DNA from: a virus | Lineage: Duplodnaviria; Caudoviricetes | DNA length: 64,000 nt | Virus record (IMG/VR): IMGVR_UViG_3300021399_000012 | Location: 1 to 64,000 of that record | Strand: one strand, 5' to 3' | In this document: in pieces, positions 12,325-31,403 of the stretch | Numbering within the stretch: position 1 is the stretch's first letter | Layout of the letters: every line of letters begins with the position of its first letter | The notes under the pieces: model-generated | Database searches by the model: none | Seen by the model: only the letters and a program-made list of their open reading frames with translations | What the model was told of the DNA's origin: nothing | Position numbers and translations under genes: made by a program

Positions 12325-13518
12325 ATGGCCTTCGAATTATATCCGCATCAAGAAGCGGCGTTGAGAAAAATGAAAAACGGTTGCATTCTTAATGGCGGAG
12401 TTGGTAGTGGTAAGTCAATAACCGCAATAGCTTATTATTTTTTCAAGAACGGTGGAATCTATGAACATCATCACATGATGCCAATGGTTAAAAAGCAGTT
12501 TCTTGTAATCATAACGACTGCTAGAAAAAGAGATACCTTCGAATGGAATAAGGAGTTGTCACTTTTCGATCTATATGTCGAGAACGGAGACGCTGTTATA
12601 GATTCGTGGAATAACATAAAGAAGTATTCTGATATGAAAGATGCATTCTTTATATTTGACGAGCAACGAGCTTCTGGATCAGGAGCTTGGGTAAAGGCAT
12701 TCCTAAAGATCGCGAAATCTAATGAGTGGATACTGTTGTCAGCGACTCCTGGTGATTCATGGGTTGAATACGCTCCAGTTTTTGTGGCGAATGGTTTCTA
12801 TAAAAACATAACCGAGTTTAAAAGAGAGCATGTTGTTATGAGTCATTACGGAGGATATCCAAAAATTGACAGGTATATAAATACTGTTCGATTGAATAAA
12901 CTCAGGAGATCTATATTGGTTGATATGGATTTCAAGCGTAAGACTAATAGAGTGCACATAAACGTTTGGGTTCCTTGGGATAATGTAGCTTATAAAAGAG
13001 CTATAAAAACCAGGTTTAATGAGGAAACCGGTGAACCATTTAAGAACGCATCTGCATTATGTTATTATTTAAGAATGATTCTAAATAGTAATCCAGATCG
13101 CTTAGTCTTTACGTACGATATTCTTAAAGAAAAGAAGAAGGCTATTATATTCTACAATTTTGACTACGAGCTGTATATGCTTGAACAAATGCTAGATGAG
13201 TACTCTATACCATATGGAGAATGGAATGGACATCAACACAATCCGATTCCAGATACTGACACATGGGCGTATTTAGTTCAGTACAATGCTGGCTCAGAAG
13301 GCTGGAATTGTACAAGATGCGATACAGTTATATTCTACAGTCAAAATTATTCATACAAGATGACAGAACAAGCTTGCGGTAGAATAGACAGACTTAACAC
13401 ACCGTATAATAATTTATATTATTATCATTTGAAGTCTAAGGCCGGAATAGACTTGGCAATAGCTAAAGCATTGAAAGATAAAAAGAATTTTAATGAGTCA
13501 GCTTGGACTTCGCAATAA
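12325..13518 (+). CDS. superfamily 2 (SNF2/DEAD-like) helicase
   Basis: GGVGSGKS Walker A, FIFDEQ Walker B, LLSATP motif III, QACGRIDR motif VI. Confidence 0.85.
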   Translation: MAFELYPHQEAALRKMKNGCILNGGVGSGKSITAIAYYFFKNGGIYEHHHMMPMVKKQFLVIITTARKRDTFEWNKELSLFDLYVENGDAVIDSWNNIKKYSDMKDAFFIFDEQRASGSGAWVKAFLKIAKSNEWILLSATPGDSWVEYAPVFVANGFYKNITEFKREHVVMSHYGGYPKIDRYINTVRLNKLRRSILVDMDFKRKTNRVHINVWVPWDNVAYKRAIKTRFNEETGEPFKNASALCYYLRMILNSNPDRLVFTYDILKEKKKAIIFYNFDYELYMLEQMLDEYSIPYGEWNGHQHNPIPDTDTWAYLVQYNAGSEGWNCTRCDTVIFYSQNYSYKMTEQACGRIDRLNTPYNNLYYYHLKSKAGIDLAIAKALKDKKNFNESAWTSQ

Positions 13519-13535
13519 TTTCAACCTCTTATATG
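13509..13535 (+). promoter_or_regulatory. phage promoter motif
   Basis: TTCGCA-N15-TATATG; no ORF downstream. Confidence 0.7.
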
Positions 13536-13567
13536 AGAGGAAAATAAAAAATTATTTGAACTTTTAA

Positions 13568-13615
13568 AGGTCTAGGGACTAGCTTATATTAGCAGTTTCT
13601 GGGCTTTTTGTTTTT
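13568..13615 (+). terminator. G-U rich terminator hairpin
   Basis: 13+3 bp stem with five G-U pairs, followed by T-runs. Confidence 0.55.
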
Positions 13616-13754
13616 ACGGCTTTAATAGTGATTTATTTGACTAGTAGAATAAAAGACTCTTACTCCCCCATTTTAAATAATTTATCGAATCCAATAATCA
13701 AATAAATATTTTCACATCGCTATCAAATAAGTCACTATTAAAGCCGTAAAAACA
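13609..13754. repeat. 32-bp inverted repeat with 82-nt loop
   Basis: 13609-13640 vs 13723-13754, single mismatch (U-G on + strand). Confidence 0.95.
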
Positions 13755-13755
13755 T

Positions 13756-13922
13756 TATATCTTTGGTATTAATAAGGGGTAGCTTAGTTTATTCAAATTT
13801 CCTTTCTGTATTTTTATATTTAGTTTGACGTGTACTTGGTTTATTATTTGTGTTTTACCTCTTTTTGTGATAGTTATTATTTTTGCATATGTCGGCTACC
13901 CTTTATTAATACCAAAGATATA
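13756..13922. repeat. 28-bp inverted repeat with 111-nt loop
   Basis: 13756-13783 vs 13895-13922, single mismatch (G-U on + strand). Confidence 0.95.
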
Positions 13923-13981
13923 TTTAATTATATTTTTTTTATCACATATAACGATTGGTAAGTTTTTAGGAGGAATGAATT

Positions 13982-14437
13982 ATGTACAAACTATTCAAAA
14001 AATTTATGGAGAAGCTTTTTAGTTATGTGGAAACTGAAAAGAAAGAAGACACAGTACCAGAGGTAAATGAGCCTGAAAAGGAAGAGGATACAGTATCAGA
14101 AGCAGACGTGAATGCATGTGATGTTCATTATCTGTTCTTCGCTAGCTTTGATGAGATGGAAGATATTGAAGAGAAGATCGATAACGTAGTTAATGATCCT
14201 TCAGGCATGGTCCCTAATGCGCATGTTACATTGGCTCTCGACGAGGTAGATAATATACCTTACGAACCTGACTTGTATGACATTGTGTATGTGTCAGATA
14301 AGTTTACAGATCGAGAAGCTATATTCGCTCTCTTCACCAATGCTCAGAAGAAGTACAAGTCTTTAAATGGCATCTTGAATCGTTTGAAGGCCGAACCAAA
14401 GCATGAGGGTAAGAAGTATAAGAAATACACAGTTTAA
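13982..14437 (+). CDS. hypothetical acidic protein
   Basis: AGGAGG RBS; long ORF. Confidence 0.75.
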   Translation: MYKLFKKFMEKLFSYVETEKKEDTVPEVNEPEKEEDTVSEADVNACDVHYLFFASFDEMEDIEEKIDNVVNDPSGMVPNAHVTLALDEVDNIPYEPDLYDIVYVSDKFTDREAIFALFTNAQKKYKSLNGILNRLKAEPKHEGKKYKKYTV

Positions 14438-14449
14438 GAGGTACATGTC

Positions 14450-14692
14450 ATGATATACATTATAGCTATTATAGCATTGATTATTGGTATTATATTTGGA
14501 ATCTTTATCGGTGTCAGGATGAAAGTATCCGAAGTACCTAATGTTGGTACCTTATGCGTCGATATGGATTCTGCTGGTTTTTTCTGGGTTGAATTTTCAG
14601 ATAGATCGACTTTTGAATCTATGAAAAATAAATACCTTAATAAGCAGGTTCGTATGAAGGTGAAACCTGTGCATTATGAAAAGACGCAATAA
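14450..14692 (+). CDS. hypothetical membrane protein
   Basis: N-terminal TM helix. Confidence 0.7.
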   Translation: MIYIIAIIALIIGIIFGIFIGVRMKVSEVPNVGTLCVDMDSAGFFWVEFSDRSTFESMKNKYLNKQVRMKVKPVHYEKTQ

Positions 14693-14709
14693 TTTCCGTT
14701 TCTTATATG
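14683..14709 (+). promoter_or_regulatory. phage promoter motif
   Basis: GACGCA-N15-TATATG. Confidence 0.65.
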
Positions 14710-14747
14710 GGTAATTGGTGCCCGTTTAACATTAAGGAGGTATAGAA

Positions 14748-15167
14748 ATGGCAAAGGAAATTTCAGAAATGACATTAGACGAATTGTTAGACTACAATCT
14801 GTCAAAAGAACTTAAAGATTTTGACGGTAAGAACAAGGAGCAAACTCAGGCAGTTGAGATGCTTCTAAAGCAGTCAACGGACAGAGACCGACTGGAATTT
14901 GAAATTACTAAGCATGAGGACGACTTAAGTGAACGTAAAGCTCAGAGAAAATTCGAATCGAAGGAGAATGAGCTTCAGCGTGAGCATGAGAAATACTTAG
15001 CGAAGCAAGATCAGAAGAAAGAAGGTATTAAGACCGCTGGCGTTGTATTAGGAGGATTGATATCTGCAGGGGCAGCTATTGGACTTGCCAACAGCGTCAT
15101 GAAGTTCGAAGAAGACGGTGGTTGTATAACAACTAAGTCTTGGGGATTTCTAAATAGACTTAAGTAA
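14748..15167 (+). CDS. coiled-coil protein with C-terminal membrane segment
   Basis: Promoter 14683-14709, AAGGAGG RBS, terminator after. Confidence 0.75.
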   Translation: MAKEISEMTLDELLDYNLSKELKDFDGKNKEQTQAVEMLLKQSTDRDRLEFEITKHEDDLSERKAQRKFESKENELQREHEKYLAKQDQKKEGIKTAGVVLGGLISAGAAIGLANSVMKFEEDGGCITTKSWGFLNRLK

Positions 15168-15770: not shown

Positions 15771-15799
15771 AGACCTTAGCAAGTCTTTAAACTGCTAAA
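15771..15799 (+). repeat. 29-bp dispersed element (copy 4, GTCTTT variant)
   Basis: One substitution. Confidence 0.9.
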
Positions 15800-15804
15800 A
15801 CTTT

Positions 15805-15831
15805 TTCGCAATATTTACAGTTTCATATATG
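15805..15831 (+). promoter_or_regulatory. phage promoter motif
   Basis: TTCGCA-N15-TATATG. Confidence 0.7.
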
Positions 15832-15873
15832 GAAAAATCAGCATTTTGCAATGATGGTAAATTCATTACTACA

Positions 15874-15902
15874 AGACCTTAGCAAGTCTTTAAACTGCTA
15901 AA
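15874..15902 (+). repeat. 29-bp dispersed element (copy 5, GTCTTT variant)
   Basis: One substitution; no RBS-led ORF upstream. Confidence 0.9.
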
Positions 15903-17020: not shown

Positions 17021-17219
17021 TACCACATATAACGATTGGTAAGTTTTTATATAGGAGGTGTTTTATGTCTTATATAGTATACAAAGTAAATGATGACGGT
17101 GAAGCGTCAGATCCGCTAGGTGTGGTTGATGATAGAGACATAGCATTTCAAATCTATTGGCGGATGTTTAATGAAGGAACTGTACTACTAATACCTAATG
17201 AATAGAAAGGCTGAAAATA

Positions 17220-26300: not shown

Positions 26301-29300
26301 TAGCGTTTATTATCGTTATGGTTATCAGTTTCTTAGTTACAGCTGGGTTAATCAAAGTACTTAGTTTATGCTTTGGTTTTGTATTTAGCTGGAAGCTGGC
26401 TTTAGGTATATGGGTGCTATTTATTCTAATAAAATGGCTACTTCCATCAAGTAAAAACTAAATAAGATTATATTTAAGAAAAGAGGTAAAAATATTATGG
26501 AAAATTTAGAAAGATTCAAGGGTATGACAGTTGTTGCTAAGGATAGAGTTGGTAATGCACCATTTGGAGATGTTACATTAACTTACAATCCAAAGAGAAC
26601 AGAGGTGTACATCGCTATTGATCGTGTTGCGTGCACAATTGCGTTCAAGCACATTGAGGATCTTCGTATTCTTCCAATTCTTGATTATAAGAATAAGAGA
26701 TTATATCTGGTTCCTGATGAGCGTGGGTATGTTATGCGTGGTACCAAGACTAGCAAAAACAGCAGACTTAACTTTGCATCAACTCCATTGTTCACAGAGT
26801 TCAAGAAGCACAAGCTGTCTAGTAGTATTTCTGATTTAATATTTGATTCTAAGCTGAATGCTTATTATATTGAATTAAATTAGGAGGTACCACCATGTCT
26901 AAAACAAAAATATGTGATATATGTGGAGAACCAATGCACTACTATCCACGATATCAAATACGTCAGACTGCTTTAGGGTTTTTATCACAGGAAGAATACC
27001 TGAGTGACGTAAAAGATGTTTGCAATCCATGTTATAACAAGTTCATTAGATTTGTAGAAAAGGAGAGAAATAAAAATGAGTAGATATATTATAGCTATAC
27101 CAAAAGATCCAAGATTCGATAAGTATAAATATATAGCTGAAAGTGTTGCAGGACCACGTTTTACCGATTGTGTTTTTGAAGCTATATGGTATGGATCTAG
27201 AGTTGCTGCTGAAATAGCAAAAGACAATTTATCAAGAGAGTATCATGCTATCGTTTTATCTCTTGAGAATACTATTGCGCAGATAGATAGAGAAAACGAT
27301 TATAAGCCTTTCTATATCCTCCGCGATACATCAGATAATAGGATGGTGCGCAAAATAGCGACGCCGATGAGCATACCATTATTCACAGATGGTTTGAAGA
27401 ATACTCTGAAGTTTGAGACTGTTGATGAGGCGATGGACGCTATAGATAATATAAATAGACACACGAATAATACTTATGAGTTCATTGTCGAGATGCATCA
27501 TTTTGATGAGTTCTATAAGGAGCGGTATGAGCATTCTGAGGAACCACAGTTTTTTATACATGGTGGTCGTGGAGGTGGAAAGACTTGGCTTGACGAGAAC
27601 CCTAATATCGCTATACCAAATACTGTCACTATGCACTACACCGGACACAGTTCTATTAATTCTATTATATCAGCAAAGGAGATGTACAATATGTTTGGAT
27701 CAACTTATCATTTACCAGAGATTAAGAAAGTTATATTCAGCAATTCAGTCACTATTGTATTATGGAAGGATGGCACTAAGACCATCGTAAGATGCCAGGA
27801 TGGCGAGACATTCGATCCTGAGAAGGGTCTGGGAATGGCGTTTATGAAGAAGGCATTCGGTAACAAGGGTAACTATTTTGACAAGGTGAGAAACCTGCTT
27901 AATAATGCTACCTATCAGAACGAGGAGGATCAGGCAGACCAGCAGGATCGTAAAGGCTGTAAGGACGATGTTCCTTTCGCTAAGAAGACAAAGAACGGTA
28001 CTTACAAGTGCCCTCATTGTTCTAGATTCGTGCCTTCTAAAAGAATTGAGGGTAAGAAGGGTCCTTTCACATGCGATAAATGCGGTAAGAAATTTAATAT
28101 CAACTGGGAAGGAGAATTAGATTATGAGTTTTAAGGCGATACTTGTTGTGATCATTGTTTTATCATTGGGCGTACTCTTTTGGCTTATTGCATTAACTGC
28201 AACTACGATTTCTACAGATCAAGCTAAAATGATTGCTGATTCTTGTGCAAATGAACTTGAGTGGAAACTGCATGGTGAGATACACAAATTGAGTTATGAT
28301 CAGCAATTATATCGTGAAGAACTCGACGAATTGAAGTCTGCTCTTAATGAACAGGGTATCGCTACTGGTTATACAACTGAGAAGAAATTATATTATAAGG
28401 ATAAGAAAGATGAACGAACCAACATGTGAGAAATGCACGCATTATGATACTTATCCTGGAATCTGTGGGTGGACAGAAAGAATCTGTGACATCCACGGAA
28501 ACCTGGATTTTAAAGACATATCAGCGTGTGAAGATTTCGAAGATATGAATGAGAGAGTAACCGAAATTCTACACAAATACAATACATCAAAGAGGACACT
28601 ATGAACTGGAAAAGAAACTTATTAACAATAATTGAATTAATTATATTTGCAGGCATTTGTTATGGTGTTCATTTATATACACATTATCTGGGAGGACATC
28701 TATGAGAGAATACACATCTATAGAAGAACTAAAGTCATGGCTAAAAAAGAGAAAGAGCTTAAAGAGTCTAATACCTTATGAAGACATCATAACATATTTA
28801 GACTCTAAGCCTCCTCTCAGAATAAGAGATGATGATGCCAAGAAACTATTAGTAAAGTACAGACCGGCAGAACCAAGAAAAGACTACACATACACCATAA
28901 ACGAAATAACATTCGACACGTATGAGGAGTTTGCTGATTGGTTGAACTGGGCAAACGATGAAGACTCAATAGGTTACATTATTATATTAAGTATAACGGA
29001 GGTGCCGAAAGATGGAGGATCTACGCAATAAATTAGATGAAGTCACTGCCACAATAGCAAATAATTACAAATTGAGCGAAGCGTATACATCAGAGATTAT
29101 ACAAAATAGTCTGGACGCAATAACAAACAAGGAGGAAAAGAAAGATGAATAAACCAACATTTGAAAGTTTAATGGATATGAATGCTAAGGAGTTATCAGA
29201 TCTCAAACGTAAGACCTGGGATGCTGTGGATATTATGAGAAATTATAAGACAATGACCGGTGGATCTACAAAGCCATCATTAATTGCTTTCGACTATGTA

Positions 29301-30216: not shown

Positions 30217-30246
30217 ATCGTTTTTTCTTCAATTTCTATTATTTTT

Positions 30247-30469
30247 TTTCTGACACTTTTCTGACACTTTTGTATTTTTTGTCATTTTTCTGACACTTTT
30301 CTGAAAAATCTGACAGAAATGGGAGTAATTTTAGGGTGTACGGACGGTAAAAAATGACAAATTTCTGACACTTTTTGCCATTTCTGACACTTTTCTGACA
30401 CTTTTTTTTCAAAAATGACAAAGCGGAAAGCCTTGCTGGGAGCGGGTTTCAGCGATTTTCTGACACTTT
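30247..30469. repeat. iteron-like array, 7 x TTTCTGACACTTT (putative replication origin)
   Basis: Copies at 30247, 30258, 30287, 30362, 30381, 30392, 30457; extra TGACA/TGTCA cores; adjacent A/T tract; gene-free. Confidence 0.7.
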
Positions 30470-30581
30470 GTCACTTTTTTCTTTAATTTACTCACGAAAA
30501 AAAAAATTAATAATATATAGTAATTTGCCAGAAAAAGTGACAAAATGACAAAACTTGTCCGGGAAGGCCCAAAACTTGCCA

Positions 30582-31212: not shown

Positions 31213-31291
31213 ATATTAAACCAAGTATAGATCGTGATAATTTCATGGTCTATATTTTTTTTTTGTCATTTTTCGACTTGCCAATCGTTAC

Positions 31292-31318
31292 AACGCGAAA
31301 ATTTCAACCCCTAATATG
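31292..31318 (+). promoter_or_regulatory. phage promoter motif upstream of nuclease-RNAP operon (variant)
   Basis: AACGCG-N15-AATATG. Confidence 0.5.
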
Positions 31319-31403
31319 AGAGGAGAATAAAAATAGTCCGTTATTTTATAGACTATTATATTCAGCCTCTTAATTTTTTGTTTACTGGGGGAACAATGCT
31401 GAT

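Follow-up and report, generated by a model that had tools for sequence, protein, structure and literature searches.

Two abutting long inverted repeats at a phage module boundary, most likely hairpins of a rightward transcript

Results

Two unrelated inverted repeats in the largest non-coding gap of the genome

The locus described here belongs to an uncultivated phage that is represented by a 72,052-bp IMG/VR viral record, and the window that we analysed is the first 64 kb of this contig. The contig has 127-bp direct terminal repeats and a GC content of 36.5%, and its + strand holds every sizeable ORF. A 1344-aa primase-polymerase and an ssDNA-binding protein are encoded, together with the helicase whose gene is the last of the replication module, upstream of a gap of 463 nt that runs from the helicase stop (13518) to the ATG at 13982 of the first gene of a 17.7-kb accessory block (Table 1). 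This gap is the most AT-rich stretch of the whole 72-kb genome in windows of 200, 300 and 400 nt, with a GC content of 23-25%. Two long inverted repeats, IR1 and IR2, sit in this gap, which is also the largest non-coding one of the genome.

The phage encodes helix-turn-helix domains, one of which, a C-terminal domain resembling sigma region 4, is carried by its RNA polymerase, a 1066-aa protein of phrog_4291, a family annotated 'RNA-dependent RNA polymerase'. Because of this polymerase, together with the primase-polymerase, the ssDNA-binding protein and the helicase, the phage is placed in the supercluster of Lactococcus 1706, Faecalibacterium FP_oengus, Streptomyces Bing, Gordonia Crocheter and Rhodococcus ReqiPoco6, whose polymerase has previously been compared with YonO and crAss-like enzymes (bioRxiv 10.1101/842583). 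The supercluster is widespread and joins phages of Firmicutes and Actinobacteria; all of its members carry a YonO-like single-chain RNA polymerase, whose promoters, terminators and RNA processing are unstudied. The phage genome contains no RNase III gene, and a search for tyrosine and serine recombinases found no Phage_integrase or Resolvase domain in it.

Table 1. Features of the gap and of the genes on either side (window coordinates).
Feature	Position	Strand	Remarks
SF2 DNA helicase gene, last of replication module	12325..13518	+	phrog_62 DNA helicase, E 1e-62; Pfam Helicase_C
Phage-specific promoter-like site TTCGCA-N15-TATATG	13509..13535	+	overlaps helicase stop, points into gap; invariant in 5 sequences
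Hairpin H1 plus U5-G-U5	13566..13615	+	H1 is 13566-13608, 18 pairs including 5 G.U; resembles a terminator only as + strand RNA
IR1 left arm	13609..13640	+	1 variable column among 5 sequences
Loop 1	13641..13722	+	G-poor (5 G in 82), unstructured; 77-85 nt in relatives
Loop 1 invariant islands	13649-13673, 13687-13698, 13707-13722	+	from alignment of 5 sequences
IR1 right arm	13723..13754	+	13729 is A in window, G in 4 relatives; pair U-A or U.G
IR2 left arm	13756..13783	+	13771 is A in window, G in 4 relatives; pair A-U or G.U
Loop 2	13784..13894	+	58% T, unstructured; 111-126 nt in relatives
Loop 2 invariant islands	13795-13807, 13821-13838, 13849-13883	+	from alignment of 5 sequences
IR2 right arm	13895..13922	+	invariant in 5 of 5 sequences
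T-rich tract after IR2	13923..13942	+	contains + strand-specific word AATTATAT; from sequence
26-nt leader or promoter-like repeat CACATATAACGATTGGTAAGTTTTTA	13943..13968	+	exact second copy at 17024-17049
First gene of 17.7-kb accessory block	13982..14437	+	151 aa, no family; RBS GGAGG at 13969-13973

The coordinates and the complementarity of the arms confirm what the initial annotation had reported for the repeats. The arms of IR1 are 32 nt long, pair at 31 of 32 positions and enclose 82 nt; those of IR2 are 28 nt long, pair at 27 of 28 positions and enclose 111 nt; a single base, 13755, divides the two, and the stem sequences are unrelated to each other. The one internal mismatch in each repeat is T.G or G.T on the + strand, as that annotation had also said, and A.C on the - strand. 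IR1 and IR2 are the only near-perfect inverted repeats of at least 18 nt in the 64-kb window, where the chance expectation for repeats like these is about 1e-7 to 1e-9, and about 450 kb of related phage DNA holds only four inverted repeats of at least 18 nt. Compared with dinucleotide shuffles, 13600-13930 folds with a z score of -9.5 (+ strand) or -10.2 (- strand).

No second copy of any arm was found in the 72-kb genome, and an exact-pattern search, by which diverged copies could be missed, returned no match to the arms in IMG/VR or in 185,579 species genomes. The gap had no blastn match among 50,697 phage records in either near or distant mode, no Rfam covariance-model match at E <= 1 was obtained for either strand of 12500-15000, and a tRNA scan of the gap region found none. 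In a check for target-site duplications, IR2 proved to be flanked by TATA on each side, a palindromic sequence that is indistinguishable from an extension of the arms, and none was evident around IR1.

The loops are as unstructured as had been proposed. Their folding energies, -0.4 kcal/mol for loop 1 (z +1.5) and -6.4 kcal/mol for loop 2 (z +0.7), are no better than those of shuffles, and the loops of every relative behave alike (z -0.7 to +1.5). The description of the gap as gene-free also holds. The only ORFs there, small ones in the loops, were considered as genes and ruled out; they are not conserved, since the indels that separate the relatives (2, 4, 7 and 17 nt) are not multiples of three and break the frame.

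Transcription signals point rightward into the gap

A promoter-like motif, TTCGCA-N15-TATAT(G/A), recurs through the genome, with 19 regular-expression matches that all lie on the + strand and none on the - strand. Its copies usually stand right after a terminator and right before a ribosome-binding site, at positions such as 71, 458, 757, 1025, 1206, 12091, 13509, 15805, 30968 and 69796-71669, and none falls in the structural region. A position weight matrix finds about 24 sites above 13 bits genome-wide, after which scores fall to below 3 bits; in a leave-one-out matrix the copy at the helicase stop scores 26.3 bits, where noise stays below 3 bits. No further site of this class was detected by the matrix on either strand of 13400-14050, and neither a ribosome-binding site nor an ORF follows the copy at the helicase stop. 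This promoter-like site would therefore direct + strand transcription into the gap. Elsewhere, a cassette at 15781-15880 that comprises a promoter and an element is missing or replaced in the related contig L164 (27% identity, compared with about 92% elsewhere in the alignment) and is therefore dispensable or mobile.

Between the promoter-like site and IR1 lies the hairpin H1 (-20.6 kcal/mol, z -5.2), all 18 pairs of which are invariant in five sequences, variation being confined to its loop. Because five of the 18 pairs are G.U and a U-run follows, H1 is meaningful only as + strand RNA. IR1 abuts it with no spacer, and a U-rich tract follows each of the three helices H1, IR1 and IR2. The stems of the repeats are AT-rich, and a consensus terminator scan calls no terminator here.

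The T-rich tract after IR2 contains an 8-mer, AATTATAT, that occurs 47 times on the + strand of the genome and not once on the - strand, in several cases directly before a ribosome-binding site; six copies belong to a repeated tail-fibre motif at 61.0-61.6 kb. A leftward TATAAT noted earlier at 13927-13932 exists in the literal sense, as ATTATA on the + strand, but is not a credible promoter: it has no -35 element and is the complement of the + strand-specific AATTATAT. The 26-nt leader that begins 20 nt beyond the end of the IR2 right arm may represent a second class of promoter or operator. Its exact second copy near 17.0 kb is preceded by an ordinary terminator hairpin and followed by a ribosome-binding site; IR2 with its T-run stands before the leader as the terminator does at 17.0 kb, and IR2 thus holds the slot of a terminator. 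The core of CACATATAACGATTGGTAAGTTTTTA also has an inverted copy (15 of 17 positions) at 31278-31292 on the - strand, at the right edge of the 17.7-kb block.

On either side of this block lies one copy of a direct repeat (about 110 nt, 75% identity; 13495-13612 and 31275-31385) that corresponds to the promoter plus leader, and IR1 starts exactly at the end of the left copy. In the right copy the promoter is degenerate and half of H1 is missing.

The arms are nearly invariant while the loops vary

The gap was recovered in four additional versions (L164, which is identical to L165, and L135, L166 and L167), all from other samples, by a metagenome scan and through homologues of the 151-aa protein encoded next to it. 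Samples that contain the phage comprise the JGI Ga0326511-Ga0326514 series, ENA ERZ28597724 and ERZ27291662, and SRA SRR14556736 and SRR28623929. Of the contigs found through an 80-aa neighbouring protein, those whose DNA could be compared all end before the gap and added no version to the alignment. Between the window and L164, 6.7% of sites differ in the helicase gene and 16% and 19% in the two loops, compared with 2 of 120 arm positions. Across the five sequences 3 of the 120 arm columns are variable, as against 24 of 90 and 61 of 143 columns in the loops. Pairwise divergence of the arms (0.8-2.5%) equals that of codon positions 1-2 of the neighbouring genes, and that of the loops (6-22%) equals that of third codon positions, the synonymous rate; the arms change at about a tenth of the rate seen in the loops and at synonymous sites. 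Judged by these rates, the arms are under strong purifying selection and the element is functional: arms as constrained as codon positions 1-2 are not decaying junk. Within the material compared, the element is confined to one shallow clade.

The loops vary in an uneven way. Indels of 2, 4, 7 and 17 nt bring the centre-to-centre spacing of the arms to 109-117 and 139-154 bp, with intermediate values present, and the 1-nt junction between IR1 and IR2 is constant in all five sequences. Patches in which nearly every column is variable lie beside the invariant islands, and the pyrimidine tracts CTTACTCCCCC (13659-13669), TTTCCTTTCT (13798-13807) and TTTTACCTCTTTT (13853-13865) all fall inside such islands. 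These islands suggest a further sequence-specific role for the loops. Each loop keeps a single orientation throughout the five assemblies, which come from five samples. In a comparison of L164, L166 and the window, L164 and L166 agree with each other against the window in loop 1 whereas the window and L166 agree against L164 in loop 2, a loop-wise mosaic that implies recombination between the two hairpins.

Pairing is retained in 99.7% of alignment cells. Five stem positions depart from Watson-Crick pairing in one or more sequences, four as wobbles on the + strand and one as a C.A that is found in L166 alone; the wobbles at 13632.13731 and 13776.13902 are fixed in all sequences, and those at 13634.13729 and 13771.13907 occur in the four relatives and are A-U in the window. 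With only five events, the + strand bias of these wobbles reaches p ~0.05. The initial annotation had called for stem covariation and loop variability to be checked in relatives: the loops do vary while the arms are conserved, but at this low divergence no compensatory double changes occur in the stems of the five sequences, and selection on pairing is for that reason inseparable from selection on sequence.

Similar-looking repeats in distant relatives

In several relatives at 43-52% helicase identity, as well as in Bing and ReqiPoco6, the gap after the helicase gene is also rich in inverted repeats, some with spacers (80/109 and 81/107 nt) close to the 82 and 111 nt found here. From their spacers and position, the repeats of L022-L028, Bing, Crocheter and ReqiPoco6 were at first taken for homologues of IR1 and IR2, an assignment that we rejected on several grounds. 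L022, L026, L027, Bing and ReqiPoco6 share the gene neighbourhood of the window, but there a single short box (ATTTGAC-like or TTAGTCA-like), repeated in forward-reverse-forward order, makes up the arms, whereas the window has two unrelated arm pairs. The mismatches in the distant arms show no strand bias (7 G.U, 6 A.C and 12 transversions), no long repeat occurs at this place in the 80 relatives nearest by helicase (54-60% identity), and the window has a box cluster of its own at 30230-30560. The distant repeats are thus probably not homologous to IR1 and IR2. Helicase relatives at 63% to 100% identity were looked for and none was found.

The cluster at 30230-30560 is iteron-like and lies in a 370-nt non-coding gap, where at least eight direct copies of TTCTGACACTTT are spaced by 11 nt and 19-29 nt and accompanied by inverted AAAATGACAAA copies. 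It is a better candidate than IR1 and IR2 for a classical origin or regulator-binding region, and it is likely the counterpart of the boxes that follow the helicase gene in the distant relatives, although synteny found no confirmation, since the gene that follows it is not the HNH gene of L026. In the distant relatives the helicase gap leads to endonuclease, exonuclease and RNA polymerase genes, from which the gap of the window is separated by 17.7 kb of small genes.

Two of the distant gaps deserve description in their own right. The post-helicase gap of ReqiPoco6 (L116, 2721-2947) holds two palindromic AACTTAATACCCTATA units 175 bp apart, and that of Bing (L031, 3696-4089) holds about nine copies of TTAGTCAYTT in both orientations. 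These repeats are candidate sites for an initiator or for the phage polymerase.

Discussion

The features collected in Table 1 most likely include, on the evidence of pairing and strand, two hairpins that fold in the rightward transcript. Loop lengths vary freely around a constant 1-nt junction, which argues for intrastrand pairing rather than helically phased bridging by protein, and the unrelatedness of the two stems and the wobble bias likewise favour pairing within the + strand; unrelated stem sequences are what two hairpins need in order to fold independently. RNA is the simplest carrier of this pairing, since all known transcription is on the + strand and the promoter points into the gap. 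We tentatively favour, over the other single explanations considered below, a model in which IR1 and IR2 form stalks in + strand RNA and serve, at the module boundary, to process or insulate transcripts, probably through cutting by host RNase III.

In this model H1, IR1 and IR2 would be three abutting helices of one non-coding transcription unit that lies where the replication module borders on the block of small accessory genes. Read-through at H1, or transcription from the helicase operon, would yield RNA that folds into dsRNA stalks of 32 and 28 bp, which host RNase III could cut, at which the polymerase could stop, or both. Either event would uncouple the upstream message from the downstream block, which would start from its own leader at 13943-13968, and cutting would in addition free two unstructured loop RNAs of about 80-125 nt. 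RNase III holds about 22 bp of dsRNA, with early transcripts of T7 and rRNA-enclosing stalks as its classic substrates (PMC6212723). The predicted + strand stems, at 32 and 28 pairs, exceed the length of about 20-22 bp of continuous dsRNA required by the enzyme.

Several observations sit less comfortably with these RNA stalks. H1 may stop most transcripts before IR1, so that the stems would be reached only by read-through. Conservation of nearly every stem base seems stronger than a 30-bp RNA helix would need, and a pure processing or insulating role leaves the invariant loop islands unexplained. Single-stranded DNA of the + strand would give the same wobble asymmetry as RNA, and the AT-richness of the gap and the adjoining replication genes suit an origin equally well.

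A transcription-primed replication origin is accordingly the main rival, and a somewhat unlikely one in our estimation. On this account a short non-coding transcript starts from the promoter at 13509, the AT-rich DNA downstream opens, and the + strand, which is the non-template strand, folds into the two hairpins and offers the loop islands to the primase-polymerase or the helicase. The gap directly follows the genes for the primase-polymerase, the ssDNA-binding protein and the helicase and is the most AT-rich window of the genome; its promoter has no ribosome-binding site or ORF after it; the loop islands are invariant; and + strand wobble suits a displaced DNA strand no less than RNA. The T7 primary origin likewise consists of promoters and an AT-rich stretch. 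There is precedent in the transcription-dependent origins of Ceduovirus c2, which are non-coding, lie between two early promoters, give rise to a non-coding transcript and are conserved within a type but unrelated between types (PMC7150918). Against an origin at this site, 13519-13981 has no iterons and no repeated short box beyond the two arm pairs, the TTCTGACACTTT cluster at 30230-30560 is much more origin-like, and cumulative GC skew rises monotonically without a turn at 13.7 kb, which is weak evidence in a genome whose genes are all co-oriented. Extrusion of cruciforms from duplex DNA is unfavourable with spacers as long as 80-125 nt, and known origins rarely use two unrelated, perfect palindromes of 30 bp.

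Explanations in terms of duplex DNA fare worse. If the arm pairs were operators that bind a regulator and loop the DNA, they would control the promoter or leader of the downstream block, the upstream part of which the IR2 right arm would cover. Such operators would account for conservation of every arm base, beyond what pairing asks for, and for the end of the IR2 right arm only 20 nt short of the repeated leader, and the phage does encode helix-turn-helix domains. The reading is very improbable all the same, as the centre-to-centre spacings, with their intermediate values, do not preserve helical phase, neither arm pair is related to the other or present elsewhere in the genome, 28-32 bp is long for operator half-sites, and the + strand wobble bias would go unexplained. 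Hardly more than a token chance is left for selfish or accidental DNA without a phage function, whether as a pair of MITE-like insertions, as invertible segments, or as palindromic remnants of the recombination behind the 17.7-kb block. Elements of 146 and 167 bp with terminal inverted repeats of 28-32 bp do resemble MITEs, IR1 does start where the direct repeat flanking the block ends, and the element is limited to one shallow clade. Single-copy junk, however, would not have arms that evolve some ten times more slowly than loops and synonymous sites. The MITE-like elements entertained at the outset are disfavoured by this constraint and by the lack of a second copy in the genome or, by exact pattern, in IMG/VR or the 185,579 species genomes. 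The invertible segments proposed alongside them are disfavoured by the single orientation of both loops in five assemblies and by the lack of a tyrosine or serine recombinase in the phage, although a host enzyme is possible.

The initial annotation had itself inferred that RNase III processes a precursor here and that the loops, as antisense or anti-Shine-Dalgarno RNAs, sequester ribosome-binding sites in phage or host messages. The two parts of this proposal fared differently. For a precursor of RNase III there are stems longer than about 22 bp, stems that behave as + strand structures and a promoter that points in, while H1 with its U-run stands between that promoter and IR1. For antisense loops, the pyrimidine tracts are indeed present, all within invariant islands, the loops are unstructured, and loop 2, with 58% U, is predicted to form duplexes with purine-rich initiation regions at a mean of -15 kcal/mol compared with -7 kcal/mol for its complement. 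Beyond base composition, however, nothing supports an anti-Shine-Dalgarno function: in duplex energies against 128 initiation regions of the phage the loops do no better than shuffled loops, shuffles being as good in 48-75% of cases for loop 1 and 5-10% for loop 2, which speaks against the claimed pairing with phage ribosome-binding regions. Complements of the islands on the phage + strand are no longer than shuffles give, and for two islands they are shorter than in 99-100% of shuffles. The 13-nt complement that had been pointed out upstream of the 26497 gene does exist, at 26479-26491, but lies within chance, since 13% of shuffles of the 35-nt island 13849-13883 have one of at least 13 nt. 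We therefore regard antisense loops as improbable.

A more speculative variant is a 'stalk-and-display' RNA precursor, in which two stalks in the style of rRNA would release or hold out two long, unstructured RNAs, one G-poor and one U-rich, whose pyrimidine islands would bind a host single-stranded-RNA factor or host Shine-Dalgarno regions and so aid the takeover of host RNA metabolism. This is a long shot, but such an RNA decoy, if real, would belong to no described family.

For phages of this supercluster, the conserved pair of 30-bp stems at a module boundary offers a testable handle on how transcripts are bounded and processed; if the main rival is true, the pair instead marks where replication starts in them. 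Should the loops be released as stable RNAs, they would constitute a new kind of phage non-coding RNA, and should they not, IR1 and IR2 would be an unusual but ordinary pair of regulatory hairpins.

Comparison with known systems

Among the closest likenesses to IR1 and IR2 are the RNase III stalks of 16S and 23S rRNA and the intercistronic hairpins of T7 early RNA, in which the flanks of a large insert likewise form a long duplex. The T7 hairpins, moreover, are intergenic in a co-directionally transcribed phage genome, as IR1 and IR2 are. The RNase III sites of T7 are nevertheless short hairpins with internal loops, unlike the near-perfect stems of 28-32 bp that surround loops of 80-125 nt in this phage. 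In contrast to the rRNA stalks, the loops here are unstructured and contain neither an Rfam match nor a tRNA.

With intrinsic (Rho-independent) terminators, including the phage's own units of a hairpin and T-run, H1, IR1 and IR2 share the U-rich tract after the helix. Canonical terminators have a short GC-rich stem and a loop of 3-8 nt, whereas the stems of the inverted repeats are AT-rich and three to four times longer and their loops, at 77-126 nt and 10-30 times longer, fall far outside that class. The Ceduovirus c2 origin, with its transcript PE1-T, resembles the gap in being non-coding and AT-rich, in lying near early or replication genes, in having two promoter-like elements at its borders, the first with no ribosome-binding site behind it, and in being conserved inside a lineage but unrelated beyond it (PMC7150918). 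The gap differs from the c2 and T7 origins in that a terminator-like hairpin precedes the repeats and a separate iteron-like cluster lies at 30.2-30.6 kb. Intergenic hairpins in a co-directionally transcribed phage are a known kind of structure; what makes this variant unusual is that two near-perfect 30-bp stems abut and enclose long, unstructured loops that contain invariant islands.
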